From: Candidatus Heimdallarchaeota archaeon
GTDB taxonomy: Archaea > Asgardarchaeota > Heimdallarchaeia > Heimdallarchaeales > Kariarchaeaceae
Length of the DNA: 32,000 nucleotides
Reading direction: 5' to 3'
Assembly (NCBI GenBank): GCA_030149205.1
Contig: JASBSB010000006.1
Span: forward strand, 240,001-272,000
The notes beneath the pieces were generated by a model. That model had not been told where the DNA came from. It did not search any database and saw only the letters and a list, made by a program, of their open reading frames with translations. The translations under genes and the position numbers were made by a program. Shown in pieces: positions 14,783 through 25,255 of the stretch. Positions within the stretch are counted from its first letter, which is position 1. Each line of letters begins with the position of its first letter.

Positions 14783-16096
14783 TTAAATGGTTATAGGAAT
14801 AGACTTTAATGCTATGGTTAATGGAAAGCTGTCAGTTTTTGTGAAAAGGGTTAGATGCAAATAAGGGATGTTAATTAATTTATCTGCTTTAATTTTAAGT
14901 AAGACAAAGGGGGTAGCCTGGATCAGATACCCGCTAATGTTGTACAATGATACTACTTCTGATTGACCAATAAAAAGTGGTTTGGTGGCTACCCAACTTA
15001 GGTTTCCAAATATGACATCATCGATTGTTGCAAACCTCATTGATACACTTGAAGTATTCAAATCAATTAGAAAATCATTTCTTAGGCTTAGATTTAAGGT
15101 AAAATTACCATTTCCGGTAGATTGATCTAAGCCTGTTATATTGAAATTAGAGATTGAGAATCCAAACGCATCTATGGTTGAAATATTTACCCTTACTGAG
15201 GTAAGTACAGGTATAGGTAAGCCCAGAATTTTAATGGTTCCATTTATTAAGACATGAATAGCCTGTGGAGAAGAGTTTATGAGAAATGCAACTGTTTCAT
15301 TAAATTTTTCAACCATGGTAATTGGTAATGTGTAATTGTGGGAATTGGGGGATAGAAATAATTCGAGTGATTTATTAGAGACGCCCAGTAACCTATTCAA
15401 GATAATGAATTGTAAATCGCCAACAAAGGTGGGAGAAATCCCAAGTGTGTTATTTATCATTAAGGACATCAGAGTGGTTCTGTTATTAGAATTAGTAGGT
15501 GTTTCAATGCGATTGATCTTAAATTGTAATGTATTTTTATTAGTGATATGGAGAATATTGTTGAAGTTTATCTGTTGTGAGATTCCATAAATACTAAAAT
15601 CTATTATACCCTTAAAGGGGATATTAAGAGTTTGACCTGCCAATAATTGACTGAAAAGTAGGACTGTAAACCCATCCTGATTAGAAAGTGTGGGACTAAT
15701 TTCTATGTCAAAGCTAATTGGAATCTTGAGTATGTTTCCTGAGATTGAGTTTGTTATTTGCTTTATCCCTGTGAAATTATTGAAGATGAAGGTTCCTAAG
15801 GATTTTGACTGATTTGTTGTAAATTCAACCGTTAGTTTATTTAGGTGAATGTTCCCTCCGGATGTTGATGTGCTCAAATTATAGATCAGAAGATTCGAGT
15901 GGACAGTTAATGCACCATTTGACTCTGAAAGTAGGATATCTCCCAATTCAAATCTTGCAGCATTTAGTTCGTTTGTAAATTGTGATTGACTATTTTGTAG
16001 TTGAACAAATTGGTACCCCAAAACGCTTGCCAGTAATATTATGACTCCTATCGCAATGACCTTTAAGTTGAGTTTTGAGTTAAGCAAAGATTTCAA
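14783..16096 (-). CDS. Membrane-anchored secreted beta-rich protein with probable tandem LEA_2/WHy-like domains
   Basis: One N-terminal TM helix (KVIAIGVIILLASVLGY), then three segments with an l.l.l.i.N...i.l..l pattern; many N-x-S/T sequons. Confidence 0.55.
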   Translation of the reverse strand: MKSLLNSKLNLKVIAIGVIILLASVLGYQFVQLQNSQSQFTNELNAARFELGDILLSESNGALTVHSNLLIYNLSTSTSGGNIHLNKLTVEFTTNQSKSLGTFIFNNFTGIKQITNSISGNILKIPISFDIEISPTLSNQDGFTVLLFSQLLAGQTLNIPFKGIIDFSIYGISQQINFNNILHITNKNTLQFKINRIETPTNSNNRTTLMSLMINNTLGISPTFVGDLQFIILNRLLGVSNKSLELFLSPNSHNYTLPITMVEKFNETVAFLINSSPQAIHVLINGTIKILGLPIPVLTSVRVNISTIDAFGFSISNFNITGLDQSTGNGNFTLNLSLRNDFLIDLNTSSVSMRFATIDDVIFGNLSWVATKPLFIGQSEVVSLYNISGYLIQATPFVLLKIKADKLINIPYLHLTLFTKTDSFPLTIALKSIPITI

Positions 16097-16192
16097 TATC
16101 CCTTGCTATTTAAATTTCTCTTAAAAGTTAGGTCTCAAGATTAAGAAAATGTAAGTTGTAAACACTTTTTAATTGTCAAGAAATACACAGGT

Positions 16193-16933
16193 ATGGATCA
16201 GGATAGACTGAGTTGGGAACAAAAAGCAGAGGATTGGCACAAGCAGGTGATGTACGACGGAGATAAATCAAGAAAGTATTTTTCTGATCCATGGATATGG
16301 AAGCTTCTAGGAAACGTTAAGGATAAAAAAATCTTAGATCTTGGGTGTGGTACAGGTTATCTCTCTATCCGGATAGCTTCAAAGGGAGCTTCGGTCATAG
16401 GAGTTGATTTTGCTGAGACAATGATACAAAAAGCCAAGCAAATCTCTCCTGAAAATCTCGATATTGAGTTTATCAGAAGTGAGAGCCATAAACTTTCGTT
16501 TATTCAGAATGAATCTCTTGATTTTGTTGTGTCGAACTTTGTGTTCATGGATATAAAAGAGATTGAAAAAACAATGGATGAGCTTTACCGAGTGCTCAAT
16601 GATAGAGGGAAGGTAATCACTGTGTTTTCTCATCCCTGCTTCCCTTTGGATCAATGCCAAGAGACTGAAGAAGGAGTGGTTTTTAATTGGGAACATCCTT
16701 ATTTTTCTAAAAGAAGAGTCACATCACCACCTTGGGCTCATCATAAGAGTGACTTCATTCACTATCATCGTCCACTATCATACTATTGGCAGATATTTAA
16801 AAAATCAGGATTTTCGGTTTTGGATTTTATAGAACCTGTTGCTTCAGAAGAGTTAAAGGTACAGTCACCACAGCTGTATGAGAATAGTCTGTTTAAGCCT
16901 GTTATGGTGTTATTTCAACTCTCAAAAGACTAA
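16193..16933 (+). CDS. Class I SAM-dependent methyltransferase
   Basis: Motif I ILDLGCGTG, GVDFA, LDFVVSNFVFMD, LNDRGKVI..FSHPCF. Confidence 0.9.
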   Translation: MDQDRLSWEQKAEDWHKQVMYDGDKSRKYFSDPWIWKLLGNVKDKKILDLGCGTGYLSIRIASKGASVIGVDFAETMIQKAKQISPENLDIEFIRSESHKLSFIQNESLDFVVSNFVFMDIKEIEKTMDELYRVLNDRGKVITVFSHPCFPLDQCQETEEGVVFNWEHPYFSKRRVTSPPWAHHKSDFIHYHRPLSYYWQIFKKSGFSVLDFIEPVASEELKVQSPQLYENSLFKPVMVLFQLSKD

Positions 16934-16936
16934 AAA

Positions 16937-17320
16937 TTAATTATCTTCCCACTCCACATCATAGTCAATTTCATCATCATCAAAATCATTTTCATCACTA
17001 TCAAATTCTACATTGAACTCATCGTCAAAATCATCAAAGTCCGAGTCAAACTCTTCATCCCAACTGAGAGGTGAATCAGTATCATTATCGTCAATTTCTT
17101 TGTAAGAATCTGTTTCTATATCATCTTCGACCAAATCAACATCATCAAAAGAATTAAAGTCATTTTCTGCGTTGAACTCTTCAACCAAAAAGTACTTGCC
17201 TTTTGAGTTTTTTTCTATTGTCAAGGTACTTTTACATTGATAACAAAGAACCTGATCTCCTTCATATGCCCTCTTTAAACGTATTTCGTTGTCACAGATG
17301 GGGCAAGTCATTACAAACAT
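16937..17320 (-). CDS. LysW-like zinc-ribbon protein with long Asp/Glu-rich tail
   Basis: CPIC-x16-CYQC ribbon (TCPICDNEIRL...GDQVLCYQCKSTLTI), then about 75 aa dominated by D/E. ATG 17320 has an AGGTGA Shine-Dalgarno 4 nt upstream. Confidence 0.65.
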   Translation of the reverse strand: MFVMTCPICDNEIRLKRAYEGDQVLCYQCKSTLTIEKNSKGKYFLVEEFNAENDFNSFDDVDLVEDDIETDSYKEIDDNDTDSPLSWDEEFDSDFDDFDDEFNVEFDSDENDFDDDEIDYDVEWEDN

Positions 17321-17324
17321 AGGC

Positions 17325-17330
17325 TCACCT
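17325..17330 (-). promoter_or_regulatory. Shine-Dalgarno site for the acidic Zn-ribbon gene
   Basis: Minus strand reads ATAGGTGAGCCTATG; GGTGA is the archaeal SD core. Confidence 0.6.
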
Positions 17331-17395
17331 ATATTTCTCAAATTAAGTGCTTATTAAGAATTTATCGAACCGTTACTTGAATCAATGTGATAATC

Positions 17396-20300
17396 TCAAA
17401 GAAAGAATTTCTGTTCTGTAAGTTTGAGGTAAGAAGCATGCATCTGTGGATTGTCTGGATACTGTTTGTAAGCATTATGAATAAAATCCTCAAAAAGACT
17501 GAAGATTTCGTAATGGTTATTTGATAAGAAGGTGACTATTTGTGTAAGATCTGTCTCAGTGAGAAGAGGAATAATACCGGTTATGTGGTCTCTCAGTGAA
17601 AGGAAAGTTGTACTGAAGGCTATTTTTTCAATCTGGTTATCATCAGATCTTATCTCAAGATTTTCAAGGGTTTCTATTATTTTCACTCCATTAGGGTTTC
17701 TCCAATTAGAAAAGGCATGATTAAGAACATAAAGGAGGTTGATAAGATGTTTTTCAGGTTTAGAGGATTTAATACCCGTGAGGTACAGACTAAAGATCTT
17801 AATTGTGAGTAGAACTGAAAGGATTGGGTAACCTCTCTCTGGATCAGCTACTTTATCAAATTCTGAAAACCAGTATGAAAGAATTTCTTCTTTCTGATTT
17901 GAGACGGTAATTAGATGGTTTTCAGTGACAAATTTAGAAAACATCAAAGTCGAATATATTTCAGAATGAAGCTCTAAGGGTAAACAATAGTTTTCAATAA
18001 ACTTCTCAAAATCATTCAAATTTATCAATAAATGATAAAGGTCAGGAGATACATTCAATAACAATTCGCACTTGCTCTTTGGTTCACCTAGATAACCGAT
18101 AAACAGAAACGAATTATAGGTATCATCTAGATTAATCTTCATCTCTAATGTTTTGCTGACGAGTTTAAAAATCAAAATTTTTGTCTTAATTATGACGGGT
18201 TTATTGCTCCTATATCTTCTCAAAGAGCTCAATAACTCATATCCAAGAGATTTCTTGTTCAATAACCCTTCGACAATAAGTTTTGTAAGGTTAAGAACTG
18301 TTTTAAGCTGAATCTCCGACAGATTTTGCTTATCCACCCATTCAGTTAAATCTGTAATTAATTCCAAATAGTTCTGAGTCCTAATCTTTCTCAAATGTAC
18401 AAGGGTCTGTGGATAAAAGGTTGAGCTTTCATGGATTAGTGGGAGTAGGTTTTCAGACAATTCAGTAACAAGAAACAAGAAATCATCAACTGTCAGCCTT
18501 TTAAAACTTAAACCGATCACTAATAAGGCATAAATTTCCCTTAATTTGCGAGAATCTTCAATGAGGTATAGGTTAATTAAATTTAAAAGATTGAGCTTGT
18601 CAATCAATTCCCCTAGCACCCCAATCTCAACCTTGAAGATATCTAAAACTATCTCCGAAATTGAAGAATATGTTGTATCCTTAGAATTTTTAAATTGAAG
18701 ATCTGCAATCATTTTAACTAAGGTGGAAGGCGTACTTACTAGATAATTTGCTAACTCTTTTAATGAGCTAAACCCTTGTTCTAACTTAGAAGAGTTTAGT
18801 ATTAATCTTACAACAGTGAAATCATGCCTTGGAATGATCGGCTCAAGTGGTTTTAACACTGATAAATTTTGTAGTAGAGCAGATTCTTTGGGATAATTAC
18901 TCATAATCAATTCAGAAAGGTCATCTGCAAGTGTGGATTTATTATCTCCTACTTCGAAAAGTAAGAATTGCAGTAGATGACTGAAAATCAATTGATCGAA
19001 GGATACTTCTAAGTCTATGGAAGCGATCTTATAATACAATAACCTATGATATTTCCGAACTGGACTGAGTAGCATGTTACTTGAATATACTAAGAGCCGA
19101 TTATATAGTGAAAATTGGTTTGATGATGTTATCTCAGAATAAGATTGCTGAACCAGTTCTATTAAACTATTTAATATTTGTGGACCTTTAATTTCCAAAT
19201 TAGGATTGAAAACCAAATCGAAAATAGAACGTCTCTCTTGAGAGGGTAAAAATCTGAGGAAGGGGAGGAATAATTCTGGGAATGCTAAGTACTGTGAATT
19301 TACACTTATTGTGTTTAATATAGTAACTGCTCTTTTTTCTAAGAAACTTTTATTTTCTTCATGAGAAGTAATCAGTTTGTTGAATTTTGAAACTAAATCA
19401 TTGGTTATAACCCATTGATTTTCTGTTGTTAACTTCAATAGGTCAATATTTAATGGTTCACCTTCCATTAGAAGTAGAACCTGCAAGTAAACTATATTCG
19501 TCATCTCTGGTTGTAAATCAATAAACCCAGATCTTGCCTTGATCAGATACACCAACTGTTCCTGGTCTAAAGTTGCTTGATTTATTACATCTCTATTAGG
19601 TTCAAAAATTTGCTGATTCTTTTCAATAAGTTGAAAATAAAGGTTTACAAGGTCTAAAAATTCAAAGAGCTTTAATTCGCTGTCTTTTATCTCCAATTCT
19701 TGAAGATTTACAAGTATTGAGTTCAAAATGGTCTCACTTGTAAACATGAATCCATAACGATTCACAGTAAATAAGGGTAATTTAACAGATAACTCCTGGA
19801 ATACCGACAACGAATCTTTCTCTAATTCCTCAAAATATACAAAACAATTTTTCAACGTGTCTCGACTCAAAAAATCATCATTAGGTTTCCTTCCTTCTAA
19901 TTTGTTTCGGAATATCAAAATTAAATATTCTAACAATTGAATAGATTCTAAATTTAGACCATGGAAAAGAGAAATTTTCCTTTGGGTACTTAGATTGACA
20001 TTTTGAAGGTTTGAAGGTTGCGAAATTTCTTGAGGTAGAGTGAGGGTCATTTTTTTGAAAACTGCTAAATAGGGAATCAGTAACTCATGAGGAACATCTG
20101 GGTAATCTGCTCTATATATCCCTTTAAGATTTTCAACAAAACTTGAATAATAGTTTGCATAAAGAGAGGGCAAGAGATGTAGGGTTTCAGGACTAAGGAT
20201 TACATACAAGTTTGAGATGATGATCGACCCTATTAATTCCTTTACCAGACCTGATGGGAGGTTAATGGTTTCAACAATACTAAGTTTCGGGTCAAGCTCA

Positions 20301-21340
20301 ACTTCTAACGCTAGCTCATAGAAACTTAAAGGACTTTCAACAAAGAAAACCAATTTCAGATCTAGACCTTTAATGGATTTAAGAAAACTCTTTATCTCAG
20401 CTTGTGACTGCTGTTGTATATAGGCAAATCCTGAAAGAAAAATTAACAAAGGTCTTTTGATTTGAGATTTAACAGATTGTAGAATCTCTTCAGGTGAATC
20501 ACTTTCTCTTTGTAAATTTAACTCTAAGGATTTCAGATCAAGCTGGTCAAGAATTTGATCTGTTACTTGTTTTATGATTGGTTTATTTTCATCAATCATT
20601 ATCAAGTTAATTTGAATTACAGGAGCATGTTTCTCAATTTGTAATATAAGCATAGATCTTATAAAAGAATCTGAATTAATAATCACGGTAGCATTTAACA
20701 AAGATTGATCCAAGAGATTTGATAGAATGCTGGGGTTATATTTTAGAAAGATTTCTAACAATACAGTTGAAGAAGGATTTAAATCAAAGGTTAAATCATG
20801 CCCACAATGAGTTGCATCAAAGAATTGCAGTGCTAATACAAACCCCTCCCGTTTAATAAAAACTTCTGACCATGAATTTTTTGCTGTTGATATCACAATC
20901 AGATTTAACTCTGCAAGGTACCTTAGTTTTTCTAACTTAAATAACTGTCTAAACTTCTTTTTTTTTCCAAATACTTTATTCCATTCGTCTTTAGATCCTG
21001 TAACATCCCTTTCGTAATGAATCTGCTGGACTTCCTCCCTGTTAACCAGACGGAAAGGTTGTTCAGGTATTAAAACCTCAGATCGTGCGGTTTTATTCTC
21101 ATTCTCAGATATCAAAGTTTCGCTTTGTTTCCTTCGGGAAGCGACTGCGAGATGAATCAAAATCTGTTGTAAATCAAAGTCATCTGTTAGTACCTCTCTT
21201 GAATTAAAAAAATTCTCCAGTGATATTTGATTAAGTAGATTTTCAAACAGGTTATCCTCACCTAATAGAACCCTCTTTTCGTTGATCGAATGATGCTTTT
21301 TGAAATTTTCTAGATTAGATTTTAGGTCCTTAAAGGTCAC
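17396..21340 (-). CDS. Large hypothetical protein: probable wHTH + degenerate P-loop NTPase (STAND/AAA+-like) + helical repeat region
   Basis: Uninterrupted 1314-aa ORF with a GTG start. Domain assignment is by secondary-structure pattern only (see findings). Confidence 0.5.
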   Translation of the reverse strand: MTFKDLKSNLENFKKHHSINEKRVLLGEDNLFENLLNQISLENFFNSREVLTDDFDLQQILIHLAVASRRKQSETLISENENKTARSEVLIPEQPFRLVNREEVQQIHYERDVTGSKDEWNKVFGKKKKFRQLFKLEKLRYLAELNLIVISTAKNSWSEVFIKREGFVLALQFFDATHCGHDLTFDLNPSSTVLLEIFLKYNPSILSNLLDQSLLNATVIINSDSFIRSMLILQIEKHAPVIQINLIMIDENKPIIKQVTDQILDQLDLKSLELNLQRESDSPEEILQSVKSQIKRPLLIFLSGFAYIQQQSQAEIKSFLKSIKGLDLKLVFFVESPLSFYELALEVELDPKLSIVETINLPSGLVKELIGSIIISNLYVILSPETLHLLPSLYANYYSSFVENLKGIYRADYPDVPHELLIPYLAVFKKMTLTLPQEISQPSNLQNVNLSTQRKISLFHGLNLESIQLLEYLILIFRNKLEGRKPNDDFLSRDTLKNCFVYFEELEKDSLSVFQELSVKLPLFTVNRYGFMFTSETILNSILVNLQELEIKDSELKLFEFLDLVNLYFQLIEKNQQIFEPNRDVINQATLDQEQLVYLIKARSGFIDLQPEMTNIVYLQVLLLMEGEPLNIDLLKLTTENQWVITNDLVSKFNKLITSHEENKSFLEKRAVTILNTISVNSQYLAFPELFLPFLRFLPSQERRSIFDLVFNPNLEIKGPQILNSLIELVQQSYSEITSSNQFSLYNRLLVYSSNMLLSPVRKYHRLLYYKIASIDLEVSFDQLIFSHLLQFLLFEVGDNKSTLADDLSELIMSNYPKESALLQNLSVLKPLEPIIPRHDFTVVRLILNSSKLEQGFSSLKELANYLVSTPSTLVKMIADLQFKNSKDTTYSSISEIVLDIFKVEIGVLGELIDKLNLLNLINLYLIEDSRKLREIYALLVIGLSFKRLTVDDFLFLVTELSENLLPLIHESSTFYPQTLVHLRKIRTQNYLELITDLTEWVDKQNLSEIQLKTVLNLTKLIVEGLLNKKSLGYELLSSLRRYRSNKPVIIKTKILIFKLVSKTLEMKINLDDTYNSFLFIGYLGEPKSKCELLLNVSPDLYHLLINLNDFEKFIENYCLPLELHSEIYSTLMFSKFVTENHLITVSNQKEEILSYWFSEFDKVADPERGYPILSVLLTIKIFSLYLTGIKSSKPEKHLINLLYVLNHAFSNWRNPNGVKIIETLENLEIRSDDNQIEKIAFSTTFLSLRDHITGIIPLLTETDLTQIVTFLSNNHYEIFSLFEDFIHNAYKQYPDNPQMHASYLKLTEQKFFL

Positions 21341-21406
21341 ACAACTCTTTAGTAATCTTTAGTATTATGGTTTATCAGGTTTTGGTAATTGTCAGATTAT
21401 TATTAA

Positions 21407-21958
21407 TTACTCTACACTTTCTGAAGCCTGTATCTCTTCAACCAACTCTGTAAATACCTTGTCCACATTTAACCCTAAAAGTGCGGATGTTTCAATATAT
21501 GAGACGTCGTAACCAGACCATTCTGATAATGTTTCTGCATAACCCTTTGCAATATCAGCAGGTACTGCCCATTTGCCTTCTTTTGTTCTTAAGTCCACTT
21601 TGTTACCAACAACAATGAATGGTATGATCTTTCCAACATTTCTTATGGTTTCATCAATCCAATATGGGAGGTTTTCATAGGTCTGTGGTCTGGAAATATC
21701 GAAAACTAGAATTGCACCCGTTGTTCCCTTGTAATAGCCTTCTCTTACCACATCAAAGTTTTCTTGACCTGCAAGATCCCATATTTGGAATACAACATCC
21801 TCAACCCTTTTAACCCCAAAATCAGCACCTATCGTCATCAGGTAATTGTAATCAAATCCTTGTCCAAGGTACCGTCTCCTTAGTGATGTCTTTCCGACCA
21901 TTGGATCACCTATCAAGACCAATTTGTAAACCTGCTTTTGATTGTAATTGAATGACAA
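21407..21958 (-). CDS. Ras-superfamily small GTPase, Rab-like
   Basis: G1 GDPMVGKT, G2 T, G3 WDLAGQ, G4 NKVD, G5 ETSAL. RabF-like IGADF, QIWD, YYKG and LVFDIS. No C-terminal cysteine. TTG start. Confidence 0.93.
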   Translation of the reverse strand: MSFNYNQKQVYKLVLIGDPMVGKTSLRRRYLGQGFDYNYLMTIGADFGVKRVEDVVFQIWDLAGQENFDVVREGYYKGTTGAILVFDISRPQTYENLPYWIDETIRNVGKIIPFIVVGNKVDLRTKEGKWAVPADIAKGYAETLSEWSGYDVSYIETSALLGLNVDKVFTELVEEIQASESVE

Positions 21959-22007
21959 ATTAATTATATATGATTTTCTCTCTTTTAACTATTTTCATTT
22001 CTAAGAG

Positions 22008-22013
22008 TATAAA
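22008..22013 (-). promoter_or_regulatory. Candidate TATA box for the Rab-like gene/operon
   Basis: TTTATA on the minus strand, preceded by purine-rich GCAAAGA (BRE-like), 50 nt upstream of TTG 21958. Confidence 0.35.
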
Positions 22014-22144
22014 TCTTTGCGGAAGCTAAAAATTTTGAGAGTTGTATATCAAAAAATCGATTTTATTACCTTTTTTATTACCATAGCAAAGTAGAAACAA
22101 TTAATCCAAGAACACTTTATATAAAAAGAAGATGAGATAATGAT

Positions 22145-22912
22145 GTGCTACAAGCAATATCTACTGATCAGATGAAACTTGTCGATCAAATTATGACAAA
22201 TAAATTTCAGATTCCTGTGGAATTGATGATGGAACATGCAGGGTTAAATTTGGCAAAATTAGCGTCAAGGGAAATATCCTCTTATAACGTTGTAGTTTTT
22301 GTTGGTAATGGAAACAACGGGGGAGGTGGATTGGTCTGTGCAAGACGGTTAATAGCTTGGGGGTATCAGGTATCACTTTACTCACCCTCATTGTTTCAAA
22401 AGTTTAAAGAAACCCCATACAATCAATTTAAACGTACTATAGCTATTGATCCTGGTATCCATCTCCTAAAGTCAGAGGAAGATTTTTACAATTACAAGAA
22501 TGAGTCCGACCACCCTCTCCTAGCAGTTGATGCCTATATAGGTTACGGATTCTCGGGGATCCCCTCTGAAATTGCTAAGAAGACGATACAGTTAATAAAA
22601 AGTTGCGACAAAATAATTTCGCTTGATGCTCCATCTGGATTAGATACAACGACTGGTCAAAATACCCTAAATCTTATCCCAGACATAATAGCAACTTTGG
22701 CATATCCAAAAATTGGATTGTTAAAAATTTCTCAGCTCGATACAGAGATATTTTTAGTTGACATAGGTGTTCCCATGTCTGTATATCTAGATAACTTGGG
22801 ATTAGAGTGGGAAAACTCTACTAAAAGGGAATTAAAAAAGGTTTATTTCAAACTTAAAAATACGTCTTTCATTTCAATAAGACTTGATAATAACGGGTGG
22901 ACTACGAAATAG
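22145..22912 (+). CDS. nnrE: NAD(P)H-hydrate epimerase (YjeF_N), stand-alone
   Basis: LMMEHAG, GNGNNGGGGLVCARRL, VDAYIGYG, SLDAPSG, TLAYPKIGL. Confidence 0.88.
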   Translation: MLQAISTDQMKLVDQIMTNKFQIPVELMMEHAGLNLAKLASREISSYNVVVFVGNGNNGGGGLVCARRLIAWGYQVSLYSPSLFQKFKETPYNQFKRTIAIDPGIHLLKSEEDFYNYKNESDHPLLAVDAYIGYGFSGIPSEIAKKTIQLIKSCDKIISLDAPSGLDTTTGQNTLNLIPDIIATLAYPKIGLLKISQLDTEIFLVDIGVPMSVYLDNLGLEWENSTKRELKKVYFKLKNTSFISIRLDNNGWTTK

Positions 22913-22916
22913 AAGC

Positions 22917-24587
22917 TTAATCAAATCTATCTAGATATTTTTGATTCTTTCGTTTCAATGCTGCCTCGACAAAGGAGAAGTAGGGTGGAGAGGGTCTCCA
23001 GGGATTAGATTTAAACTCAGGATGAAATTGGGTCGCAATAAAATAGGGGTGGTCAACAATCTCTAGAGTTTCCATGAGTTCATTCCAAGTTCCTGTAAAT
23101 TGGAGACTTTTTTCATCAAATACATAGAGCAATTCTGGATTTACCTCATACCGATGTCTATGTCTTTCCTGAATTTTTAGCTTTTTGTAAATCTCATATA
23201 TTTTGGTATTAGGACGCAAAGTAACTTCATAACTCCCCAATCTCATGGTTCCACCTTTTTCAGAAACAGATCGTTGTTCTGGAAGTAAATCAATTATGGG
23301 GAATTTTGCATTGGGATTAATTTCTGTTGAGTAAGCATCTTGTATCCCTAGTACATTCCTGGCATACTCAACCACGGAGAGCTGAAATCCTAGGCAAATT
23401 CCCAAAAAAGGGATCTTATTTTTGCGTGCATATTCTATGGCCTTGATTTTACCCTCTATTCCTCTGGTTCCGAATCCCCCAGGAATAAGTATCCCATCAA
23501 CCTTATCAAGTAAGGACAATGAAGCTTCATCCTCCTCAAATCGTTCTGTTGGTAAGAGGTGTAATTCAACATCAACACCTTGATTCCATCCTGCATGTTT
23601 TAAAGCCTCAGTGACTGAAATATACGAATCACTTAGTGAGGTGTACTTTCCGGGAATACCAATCTTGACCTTTTCTTTCAGACTTTTAATTTCCTGAGTT
23701 AAATTTACAAATTTTGTCCAGTTTGGTGGAGTAACACGAGAATGAATTCTAAGCTGATCTTCAAGCAAATTACCAAGTCCCTGGCGTTCCAATGCACGAG
23801 GTACTTGAAAGACATTAGGTAAATCTGGAAGGTCTAAAACAGCGTTCTCAGCAACGTTCCCAAAATTTGATATTTTTTCAAGGGCTTTTGATGATAGAGG
23901 GATAGAACTTCGACAGATTATAATGTTTGGAGACATTCCCGCAGCTTGTAACTCTCTTACAGAATGTTGAGCTGGTTTAGTTTTATGCTCTTTTAAATGT
24001 TCAGGGAATGGTACATAGGTCAGCAGGACAATAGAGGTAAGGTGACCATTTTCTTTTCGCTTCAGTTGACGTATAGCCTCCAGATAAGGTTGTGATTCAA
24101 TATCCCCAATTGTGCCACCTACCTCAACAAGCATGACATCAGGAGTAAATTTTTTTCTTTGCTCCTCTATTCGTCTCAGTATCTCATCTATGATATGTGG
24201 GACAATCTGAACAGTTTGACCAAGAAAATCTCCTCTTCTTTCTCTACTGATTACCTCAAAATAAATTTGTCCTGTGGTGATATTCTGTTCCTTTGAAACT
24301 TCTATTTCCAAAAAACGTTCATAGTGACCGAAGTCCACATCAAGCTCACCACCGTCGTTTGTTACAAAGGTTTCACCGTGTTCGGTAGGATTCATTGTCC
24401 CCGCATCTAAATTCAGATAAGGATCTATTTTAATGATGTGAACTTTAAGTCCTCTCGCTTGGAGTGCGGCTCCTATGGAACAGGTAACAATTCCTTTCCC
24501 TAATCCTGACAAGACAGAGCCTAAAATAAAAACTGTTTTTGATTGAACCTTATTTTCACTCAAACTTGATGTGTGTAATGTAGACAC
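22917..24587 (-). CDS. pyrG: CTP synthase
   Basis: SGLGKG, KIDPYLN.DAGTM.P..HGE, EVGGTIGDIES, KTKPAQHS, PGGFG.RG, GICLG, ERHRHRYE, QFHPE. Confidence 0.99.
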   Translation of the reverse strand: MSTLHTSSLSENKVQSKTVFILGSVLSGLGKGIVTCSIGAALQARGLKVHIIKIDPYLNLDAGTMNPTEHGETFVTNDGGELDVDFGHYERFLEIEVSKEQNITTGQIYFEVISRERRGDFLGQTVQIVPHIIDEILRRIEEQRKKFTPDVMLVEVGGTIGDIESQPYLEAIRQLKRKENGHLTSIVLLTYVPFPEHLKEHKTKPAQHSVRELQAAGMSPNIIICRSSIPLSSKALEKISNFGNVAENAVLDLPDLPNVFQVPRALERQGLGNLLEDQLRIHSRVTPPNWTKFVNLTQEIKSLKEKVKIGIPGKYTSLSDSYISVTEALKHAGWNQGVDVELHLLPTERFEEDEASLSLLDKVDGILIPGGFGTRGIEGKIKAIEYARKNKIPFLGICLGFQLSVVEYARNVLGIQDAYSTEINPNAKFPIIDLLPEQRSVSEKGGTMRLGSYEVTLRPNTKIYEIYKKLKIQERHRHRYEVNPELLYVFDEKSLQFTGTWNELMETLEIVDHPYFIATQFHPEFKSNPWRPSPPYFSFVEAALKRKNQKYLDRFD

Positions 24588-24658: not shown

Positions 24659-25117
24659 CTAAAATCTAGTACGGTTAGCAGAAATGGCTAGCTTCGCCTT
24701 GACACCATTGCCACCGAAACTTTCATACTCTTTACCTTGTCCTAATTTTATAGTCAACTTCACGTCTATGAGTTTATCATCTTTTCCTAAATCTTTGTCA
24801 TAGACCCTAAAGGGTACTTCGATACTCCCGCCATCTTTCTTCTCAATAAACTCAGAATATAATGATAGCCCATCGGACGGTTTAAAAACTTCATTTCGAT
24901 CAATTTCTATCTCACCATGGTCAGGAGTTCTTTTTGATCGTAATCTACTTCCCATCTCAATATAGATCTCAGAAGTCCGACCTATATGATCAGTTTCTTC
25001 CTCAACCTTGATTGATACTAGTGAGATATGAACAAAATATCTCCATCCTTCTATCGGAGTTCTGTCTCCTTTTGCACTTGTATCTGTGTATGTTTTTACT
25101 ACTCTTTTTCTGCCCAT
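24659..25117 (-). CDS. Stand-alone C2-domain-like protein (tentative)
   Basis: All-beta pattern. ETDHIGRTSEIYI resembles the C2 D..G.SDPYV loop, and RVYDKDLGKDDKLI resembles V.D.D....D.iG. The start could be ATG 25117, 25141 or 25165. Confidence 0.5.
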   Translation of the reverse strand: MGRKRVVKTYTDTSAKGDRTPIEGWRYFVHISLVSIKVEEETDHIGRTSEIYIEMGSRLRSKRTPDHGEIEIDRNEVFKPSDGLSLYSEFIEKKDGGSIEVPFRVYDKDLGKDDKLIDVKLTIKLGQGKEYESFGGNGVKAKLAISANRTRF

Positions 25118-25255
25118 ATCGTCAAATTTGAGTTCCCACATAAAAAGATTAGGTGTGAAATTCATTTGAGTTTTTATAGCTATTGAACAAAACCTTCCAA
25201 ATAAATCATGTTTTTAAAACCCAATAATTTTAAATGATAAATACTACTATTACCC

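Follow-up and report, generated by a model that had tools for sequence, protein, structure and literature searches.

This analysis concerns a 32,000-nucleotide stretch of a Candidatus Heimdallarchaeota genome, G000 (contig JASBSB010000006.1; G000:C2:240001-272000), which we refer to as the window and which has a GC content of 32-39%. On its minus strand, at 17396..21340, lies a gene for a protein of 1314 amino acids (aa), P0001, with a GTG start and a stop codon at 17396-17398. A second gene on the same strand (21407-21958), 66 nt upstream of it, encodes a Rab/Ras-like small GTPase of 183 aa, P0002. Our estimate, set somewhat above even chances, is that P0001 is a scaffold of the STAND type (signal transduction ATPases with numerous domains, related to AAA+ proteins) that has turned into a pseudo-nucleoside triphosphatase (pseudo-NTPase), and that it forms a two-gene signalling module with one dedicated GTPase whose own motifs are intact. 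As part of that reading, P0001 would consist of an output domain (residues ~90-180), a nucleotide-binding domain (NBD) fold lacking both the P-loop and an acidic Walker B (~215-380), a helical and winged-helix region (~380-555) and a HEAT-like solenoid of ~750 residues.

The P0001 gene is more than a chance open reading frame (ORF), because full-length relatives of 1286-1376 aa are found elsewhere: the three other genomes of its genus have one each, another genus has one too, and two assemblies from metagenomes supply the rest. In all, six full-length relatives and a partial one turned up, every one of them in Heimdallarchaeota. Genome searches recovered the full-length copies of the three genus-mates and of one further genus of the same family; a scan of genome contigs gave three loci, and a JGI metagenome contributed one more with a partial copy (L047). 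A clear family match was present in 5 of 400 Asgard genomes, five further rows (E 3e-4 to 3e-3) having the appearance of noise. When 1.84 billion representatives were searched exhaustively with phmmer, no more than three relatives of P0001 emerged, and a word-indexed protein search returned the query alone, whether it was started from P0001 or from the family alignment. Searches of P0001 against Pfam, NCBIfam, PADLOC and PDB sequences gave no match. Scanning every member of the family against these three libraries of models (Pfam, NCBIfam and PADLOC) likewise assigned no family, the sole row over thresholds (NsnC, E 0.0094, on P0012) being judged noise, and PDB sequence-profile searches with family alignments yielded nothing significant. 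The family hidden Markov model (HMM) detected no paralogue among all ORFs of G000.

For comparison we used six full-length sequences (P0001, P0005, P0006, P0013, P0010 and P0012) together with the partial L047, all from Heimdallarchaeota. Pairwise identity among the big proteins is 22-28%, and the G000 copy shares 24-27% with the other three of its genus. The conservation profile has a strong peak at residues 91-195 and lesser peaks at 646-720, 1021-1065 and 1186-1230, and residues 226-500 are the least conserved stretch of the protein. Conservation that is lowest in the NTPase-like region and highest in the N-terminal domain is what would be expected once catalysis has been lost.

The first-pass annotation, made from the sequence of the window, had proposed that P0001 lost both Walker motifs, and the motifs that it quoted are indeed present at the residues that it gave: EKLRYLAELN...FVLA at 137, ATVIIN at 217, SDSFIRS at 223, VIQINL at 241, PLLIFLSG at 297, LKLVFFVES at 328 and ELSVKLPLFTVNRYGFMF... 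at 516. The Walker A consensus GxxxxGK[ST] is absent from P0001, and not even one GK[ST] occurs anywhere in its sequence. At the beta1-alpha1 junction, where the loop should lie (residues 217-236, 20633..20692, minus strand), P0001 reads ATVIIN-SD-SFIRS, with neither Gly nor Lys and six residues fewer than its relatives. The strand at the Walker B position, PLLIFLSG (residues 297-304, 20429..20452, minus strand; modelled as strand beta3 over 299-304, LIFLSG), contains no acidic residue and carries Ser-Gly in its place. As the annotation had it, neither motif is present in P0001.

The check that the first-pass annotation had proposed, whether orthologues keep these motifs, gave its interpretation the strongest support. 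In the alignment the junction reads GDSGAGKN in P0010 (LKIYGDSGAGKNTTMQLL), GRVGAGLP in P0012 (LYPICGRVGAGLPSFLRLL) and GKSGIGLS in L047 (LMIVAGKSGIGLSSVIRDM); remnants are seen in P0006 (..DGSS, MISQHNDGSSAF), P0013 (..DGST, LLSNHNDGSTMV) and P0005 (..DGGS, LLHDPFDGGSWL), and P0001 has a 6-residue deletion. The Walker A Lys is therefore kept in a single lineage, P0010; two others retain the glycines with Leu in place of Lys, three retain a single Gly, and in P0001 the loop is deleted. These graded remnants at one aligned junction indicate that the family descends from a protein with a GxxGxGK loop, and the orthologue set, which captures a P-loop at several stages of decay, should be useful for studying how pseudo-NTPases originate. 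The relatives also possess hydrophobic strands ending in Asp (LLVNFIDFD, VIFAIDHAD, IWLVLDHAD and LVLIYDH). On our reading, PLLIFLSG of P0001 is the equivalent of this Asp-ending strand 3, in a region where the MAFFT alignment is unreliable.

Retention of the Walker A Lys and of an Asp-ending strand 3 in P0010, together with the fact that some P-loop relatives tolerate deviant motifs, could be taken to mean that P0001 still binds or hydrolyses nucleotide at a non-canonical site and is no pseudoenzyme at all. We consider this very improbable, given that in P0001 itself the loop is six residues short and devoid of Gly and Lys, that Ser-Gly stands at the Walker B position, and that the Walker A Lys is missing from most members in what is the least conserved region of the protein.

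The NTPase-like core (residues ~215-380, 20201..20698, minus strand) was modelled by AlphaFold2 (AF2) as part of residues 85-580, using a six-row alignment. The mean predicted local distance difference test score (pLDDT) was 46 and the predicted template modelling score (pTM) 0.35, model residues 140-270 reaching a pLDDT of 56-79. The secondary structure runs beta1 (218-222)-alpha-beta2 (241-245)-alpha-alpha-beta3 (299-304)-alpha-beta4 (329-334)-alpha-beta5 (353-356). In this model the five strands are those of an ASCE/AAA+ core and lie where the first-pass annotation had named them.

Structural comparison placed the model among AAA+ and STAND proteins. With VIA-align, run against 48,161 PDB representatives, the top match was 2qen, the Walker-type ATPase PAB2304 (Z 8.7, root mean square deviation 4.7, 179 aligned residues), followed by Cdc6/Orc1 (7.0), SSO1545 (6.8), Avs4 (6.8) and Apaf-1 (6.4); ORC2, ORC5, Avs5, TnsC, NRC2 and ZAR1 were also matched. 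AAA+/STAND P-loop proteins occupied 49 of the 50 best rows, at Z 6-8.7 over 130-205 aligned residues. Foldseek on the N-terminal model listed ORC2/ORC3 first (E~1e-3) and then ORC4/5, Pex1/6, ZAR1, Apaf-1/Dark and 2qen. A shape search of the ESM Atlas returned clusters annotated AAA_16+GerE, WHD_MalT, KAP, NACHT, ATPase_2+DUF234 and BTAD+AAA_16, at template modelling (TM) scores of 0.32-0.39. Any single one of these fold scores is marginal, and it is the uniformity of the match lists that carries the weight. The degenerate P-loop fold proposed for residues 215-340 thus has its counterpart in a beta-alpha-beta model, of low confidence, with neighbours that are almost exclusively AAA+/STAND. ROCO/LRRK2 chains did not appear among the Foldseek and VIA-align matches listed for the N-terminal half, a result that does not exclude a COR/ROCO reading.

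The first-pass annotation had offered an NLR/STAND- or Cdc6-like scaffold. ORC2 and ORC3 are the top Foldseek rows, and the language-model features of whole P0001 match ORC3-like clusters at 0.89, so that a degenerate AAA+ subunit of the ORC3/ORC2 kind, related to replication initiation, has to be weighed. The value of 0.89 lies below the trust level of the method (recognition 1871) and is a lead only. For residues 195-640 of P0010 the same features gave 0.96 against NPHP3_N, nSTAND3, nSTAND_NTPase4 and NACHT clusters, a score that about 1 in 100 shuffled whole proteins reach, in a calibration not made for protein parts. This leads us to derive the module from STAND proteins and not from the ORC branch. 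No ORC3_N, WHD_ORC or other ORC match was found in Pfam, a solenoid of 750 aa and a GTPase partner are foreign to ORC, and G000 has ordinary AAA proteins of Orc1/Cdc6 size elsewhere. Of the two options in the first-pass annotation, the STAND half fits better than Cdc6/ORC, and a relative of the replication machinery seems to us the least credible of the alternatives.

Between the core and the solenoid, a lid-like helical region with a possible winged-helix end (residues ~381-555, 19676..20200, minus strand) was modelled at a pLDDT of only ~30-40, with a hairpin at 524-527/530-533 and a helix at 536-548. The Atlas row with WHD_MalT covers model residues 116-472. Relatives carry VRFQHDIF or IGFKHSQI at the winged-helix end, which weakly recalls the 'MHD' position of STAND proteins. 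The winged-helix end proposed at 516-543, modelled as hairpin and helix at a pLDDT of ~30, is thus a tentative assignment.

Residues 560-1314 (17399..19663, minus strand) form, in the AF2 model (mean pLDDT 72), an all-alpha solenoid of the HEAT/ARM-like kind that comprises ~42 helices and lacks strands altogether; the segment is 17.9% Leu. Its conserved patches lie at 646-720, 1021-1065 and 1186-1230, the last including LxxLNHAFSNW with an invariant W1213. Foldseek matched it to condensin Ycg1, SF3B1, CAND1, transportins, importin-beta and CRM1 (E 2e-4 to 3e-3, probability ~1), the Atlas search placed importin-13 first (TM 0.51 over 593 residues), and VIA-align returned helical-repeat proteins only (Z <= 9.3). 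The model and its matches to HEAT proteins confirm the C-terminal repeat solenoid that had been anticipated from the leucine-rich helices; a specific kinship to any one protein was not seen.

The solenoid is the sole confidently modelled part of P0001, and its best shapes (importin-13, importin-beta, exportins and TBCD) are those of binders of Ran or Arl2. No sequence profile detects a P-loop family in the protein. P0001 might on this basis be a plain large alpha-solenoid, serving the GTPase as guanine nucleotide exchange factor, GTPase-activating protein or cargo adaptor, with an unrelated Rossmann-like insert as its alpha/beta part and P-loop-like strings that arose by coincidence. We regard this as unlikely. 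One orthologue has GxxGxGK, and two others GxxGxG, exactly at the predicted beta1-alpha1 junction, with a hydrophobic, Asp-ending strand following at canonical spacing; three independent methods (VIA-align, the Atlas search and language-model features) arrived at AAA+/STAND; and the shape matches of the solenoid are generic (TM 0.17-0.51, Z <= 9.3).

The best-conserved domain of the family is N-terminal (residues ~90-180, 20801..21073, minus strand). Invariant in it are R97, R101, H108, G115, D118, F130-R131-Q132, F134, W157 and G166; the invariant residues also take in KKFRQ, with which the putative recognition helix begins. AF2 modelled residues 136-173 as a helix (136-144), a beta-hairpin (148-153/156-162) and a second helix (164-173) at pLDDT 61-75, an arrangement compatible with the recognition helix and wing seen in the first-pass annotation. 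The domain corresponds to no Pfam family, and a language-model search with the domain alone gave no usable match; no nuclease, TIR or protease signature is recognisable in it. The sole sequence hints of a winged helix-turn-helix (wHTH) are weak matches to eS25 (E 1.1) and to a 121-aa ORF of G000 (HMM E 0.007, hhalign probability 23%). The wHTH assigned to residues 137-170 is putative: a helix and a beta-hairpin are predicted, there is no Pfam family and pattern matches are weak. A winged helix appears plausible to us, with the balance tilted slightly in its favour.

The 121-aa ORF (G000:C8:390425-390790; L055), which has no Pfam family either, contains a pattern (...ALEELENENIINIQ...) that can be read as wHTH-like, and it is the best in-genome match, if a weak one, to the N-terminal domain.

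P0002, noted in the first-pass annotation as the adjacent GTPase, is confirmed as such by Pfam (Ras 1.8e-40, Roc 2.8e-28). Its G motifs are intact (G1 GDPMVGKT, switch-I T42, G3 DLAGQ, G4 NKVD and G5 ETSA), and in the alignment of five GTPase orthologues all G motifs and the catalytic Gln are invariant. The C-terminus (...IQASESVE) has no Cys and hence no Cys prenylation motif; a C-terminal Cys is reported to be absent from other Asgard Rab-like proteins as well (PMC10933270).

A gene for a Ras-like GTPase of ~182 aa adjoins the big gene in 6 of 6 loci with upstream DNA, G002 standing outside this count since its contig stops at the start of the big gene. The pair is co-oriented in G000, G001 and G003, with gaps of 66, 7 and 19 nt, and divergent in the second genus (G007/L024), in L023 (the contig of P0010) and in L047. 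Among 41 related genomes, matches to the GTPase above 60% identity (62-74%) occur only in G001, G003 and G007, all of which carry the big protein; elsewhere the best match is at the level of a paralogue (51-58%), the next paralogue within G000 being 53% identical. The GTPases of G001 and G003 share 92% identity, as against 47-62% for flanking genes and 28% for the big protein of these two genomes, and the difference from the flanking genes argues for unusually strong constraint on the GTPase. The orthologues behind the 92% figure are L022:7161-7721 and L006:6708-7259.

This conserved adjacency and co-occurrence are what suggest that nucleotide sensing may have been handed to the neighbouring GTPase, as the first-pass annotation had surmised. 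The analysis shows the arrangement of domains at the level of folds, a P-loop that decays from one orthologue to the next, a GTPase with intact motifs, and adjacency that is conserved and goes with co-occurrence. That the GTPase physically binds P0001, which of the two controls the other and what the N-terminal domain acts on are inferred. P0001 would no longer be able to run an ATP/ADP cycle of its own. The GTP-bound GTPase would dock on P0001 at a conserved surface, which might be a patch of the solenoid or might belong to the N-terminal domain, and docking would switch the scaffold between a closed state and an open or assembled one. The N-terminal domain would thereby be exposed to its target, DNA or a partner, and GTP hydrolysis would reset the system. 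The narrower proposal, in which a Rab-like GTPase took over the switch of a STAND protein without an ATP site of its own by binding to an importin-like HEAT solenoid, is in our view a long shot. A complex prediction with GTP, covering the GTPase and residues 85-195 and 650-1314 (leaving aside the NTPase-like middle, 196-649) with the chains supplied as alignments, gave an ipSAE of 0.01 in both runs, which counts neither for nor against binding. Public sequencing runs yielded no RNA data.

Several observations weigh against a pseudo-NTPase scaffold with a dedicated GTPase. The N-terminal model is poor (mean pLDDT 46, pTM 0.35), the Foldseek E-values are only ~1e-3, and the best Z of 8.7 is close to the level that VIA-align calls common. 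Pfam, PDB profiles and hhalign provided no profile link of the family to any P-loop, STAND or AAA+ family, the best Pfam row being AAA_22 on P0010 at E 2.4 only, with none for P0001. When the family was compared by hhalign with the Orc1/Cdc6- and AAA_16-type proteins of G000, probabilities were <=0.5%, like those of unrelated controls, a comparison that is uninformative for six divergent sequences without a P-loop. The Walker B equivalence leans on an unreliable alignment. The family is limited to two genera and a few metagenome contigs. Adjacency to the GTPase is seen only in kin genomes that share some synteny by descent, and YjeF_N is also near in two lineages. G000 contains 22 ORFs for Ras-like small GTPases, 9 of which have a neighbour of at least 600 aa within 400 nt; adjacency alone is therefore weak evidence, and the other eight large neighbours are unrelated to P0001, so that proximity to a large gene is common by chance. 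What carries weight for the pseudo-NTPase module is adjacency that survives inversion, in combination with the co-occurrence of one orthologue group.

A recurrent arrangement of GTPase and giant neighbour in G000 was considered and set aside. Seven scanned neighbours comprised an M3 peptidase, a subtilase, a class I aminoacyl-tRNA synthetase, EF-2 and three proteins that could not be placed confidently in any family. An AAA protein of the Clp-like kind (C2:302650-305277) makes up the eight, none of which is a relative of P0001. The family-less neighbours measure 689, 768 and 775 aa. The 768- and 775-aa proteins (G000:C4:105745-108051 and G000:C1:189190-191517; L051 and L053), which the HMM does not identify as relatives of P0001, might be partners of other GTPases.

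An order of effector, nucleotide-oligomerization domain (NOD) and repeat sensor is the classic STAND plan, which prompts comparison with conflict systems. P0001 could be an immune or conflict sensor of the Avs/NLR/iSTAND kind, its fast-evolving solenoid recognising an invader protein, its N-terminal domain acting as effector or adaptor and the GTPase setting a threshold or timer. The language-model neighbours of P0010 (nSTAND3, nSTAND_NTPase4, NPHP3_N and NACHT) are common in such systems, which also include known cases of a separate NTPase serving an inactive STAND (PMC7159879). The big protein has diverged more quickly than the genes around it, as the comparison of G001 with G003 shows (28% versus 47-62% identity), and the distribution is narrow and patchy (5/400 Asgard genomes). 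PADLOC, however, has no model that fits the GTPase or any member of the family, and the surroundings are of the housekeeping kind (CTP synthase, YjeF_N and SurE), syntenic across genera and not an island. Conservation is highest in the N-terminal domain, where, as noted above, signatures of a nuclease, TIR or protease cannot be recognised. In addition, a ~99% identical strain from a hydrothermal vent differs by 0.7-1.1% in the big gene and by 0.6-1.7% in neighbouring genes, with no excess in the former. On balance a role in immunity appears doubtful.

The closest parallel for a pseudo-NTPase scaffold with an external switch is the iSTAND of bacterial vWA-MoxR ternary systems, an inactive STAND dependent on an NTPase that is encoded by another gene (Kaur, Burroughs, Iyer, Aravind 2020, PMC7159879). 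Like P0001, iSTAND combines a STAND-derived core without catalysis, an N-terminal output domain and a separate active NTPase beside it, presumably the switch. The partners differ: MoxR and vWA in bacteria, a Rab/Ras-like GTPase in an Asgard archaeon. The operon with MoxR and vWA is absent from the P0001 locus, which instead contains the Ras-like GTPase, YjeF_N, CTP synthase, a methyltransferase and a Zn ribbon. Unlike that of iSTAND, the N-terminal domain of P0001 is not TIR, caspase or Death-like, and there is no sequence match between the systems (PADLOC and Pfam were empty). By analogy, the pair looks like an archaeal variant of the inactive STAND in which a Rab-like GTPase would serve as the external NTPase.

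Active STANDs (MalT, AfsR/SARP, Avs3/4, Apaf-1 and plant NLRs) share with P0001 the succession of output domain, NBD, helical/winged-helix region and long repeats, and AfsR/SARP begin with a winged-helix DNA-binding domain, as P0001 may. They bind ATP/ADP via GxxxxGK[ST] and hhhhD[DE], neither of which P0001 has, and their sensors are built of TPR, WD40 or LRR, whereas that of P0001 is HEAT-like. At the Pfam level P0001 has no membership. Among the traits of STAND NTPases (Leipe, Koonin, Aravind 2004), P0001 accordingly displays the C-terminal superstructure-forming repeats but neither Walker A nor Walker B nor a sequence-profile match. PAB2304 and SSO1545 (PDB 2qen and 2fna; ATPase_2 + DUF234), the best match to residues ~200-412 (Z 8.7 and 6.8), are archaeal too and pair an AAA+-like core with a winged helix. 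In contrast to P0001, they are only ~350 aa long, keep an intact P-loop and have no solenoid, and the ATPase_2 profile misses P0001 in a genome search.

Two further comparisons concern the pairing with a GTPase. Karyopherin-beta proteins with Ran (importin-13, importin-beta and exportins) resemble P0001 in the shape of the solenoid (TM 0.51, 593 residues) and in being paired with a GTPase of the Ras superfamily; in contrast, P0001 has no IBN_N/importin match in Pfam, karyopherins have no NOD-like module, and the HEAT likeness is generic. In ROCO proteins (Roc GTPase - COR - repeats, as in LRRK2 and bacterial Roco) a Ras-like GTPase works, as may be the case here, with a very large repeat scaffold. 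P0002, by contrast, has a gene to itself, and Pfam did not pick up a COR domain.

Asgard archaea encode dozens of Rab/Ras-like GTPases. Their genes do not as a rule share an operon with a candidate regulator, and genome context therefore cannot be used to match GTPases to partners (Tran et al. 2024, PMC10933270). Adjacency in two orientations together with co-occurrence makes P0001 and P0002 a testable candidate pair, one GTPase orthologue tied to one large protein, open to direct expression. The pair would add a second, independent route to an inactive STAND with an external NTPase, so far described from bacterial MoxR-vWA systems. If the proposal is true, it would provide an archaeal example, from the lineage that is nearest to eukaryotes, of Ras-superfamily GTPases gaining large effectors of the solenoid type.

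Downstream of P0001, at a distance of 54 nt, lies the gene for a 134-aa Zn-ribbon protein (16937-17341, minus strand), LysW-like, with a long acidic tail of ~80 Asp/Glu-rich residues ending ...DVEWEDN. Its matches to Pfam Zn_ribbon_LysW (E 0.0014) and NCBIfam carrier_LysW_Arch (E 3.9e-4) are both below the cut-off. This gene was considered as a third member of the module and rejected: the homologues in G001 and G003 are 10-18 kb off on the same contig, and none was found in G007. In three other genomes of the genus the place after the big gene, which the Zn-ribbon gene holds in the window, is taken by a Thr/Ser/Val-rich protein of ~624 aa (L022:1254-3128, L006:828-2702 and L005:728-2599) that resembles a surface protein in having an N-terminal signal-like segment and a C-terminal transmembrane anchor. 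The other neighbours of P0001 are housekeeping genes, for YjeF_N, CTP synthase, SurE, an M32 carboxypeptidase and an S-adenosylmethionine-dependent methyltransferase. For two more ORFs of the window, at 14783-16096 (minus strand, 437 aa) and 24659-25165 (minus strand, 168 aa), Pfam gave nothing at E <= 0.001.

The hydrothermal-vent strain mentioned above comes from a metagenome of a different study (run X2), in which fragments that are ~99% identical span positions 15000-24000 of the window. The organism is therefore not restricted to its source sediment sample.

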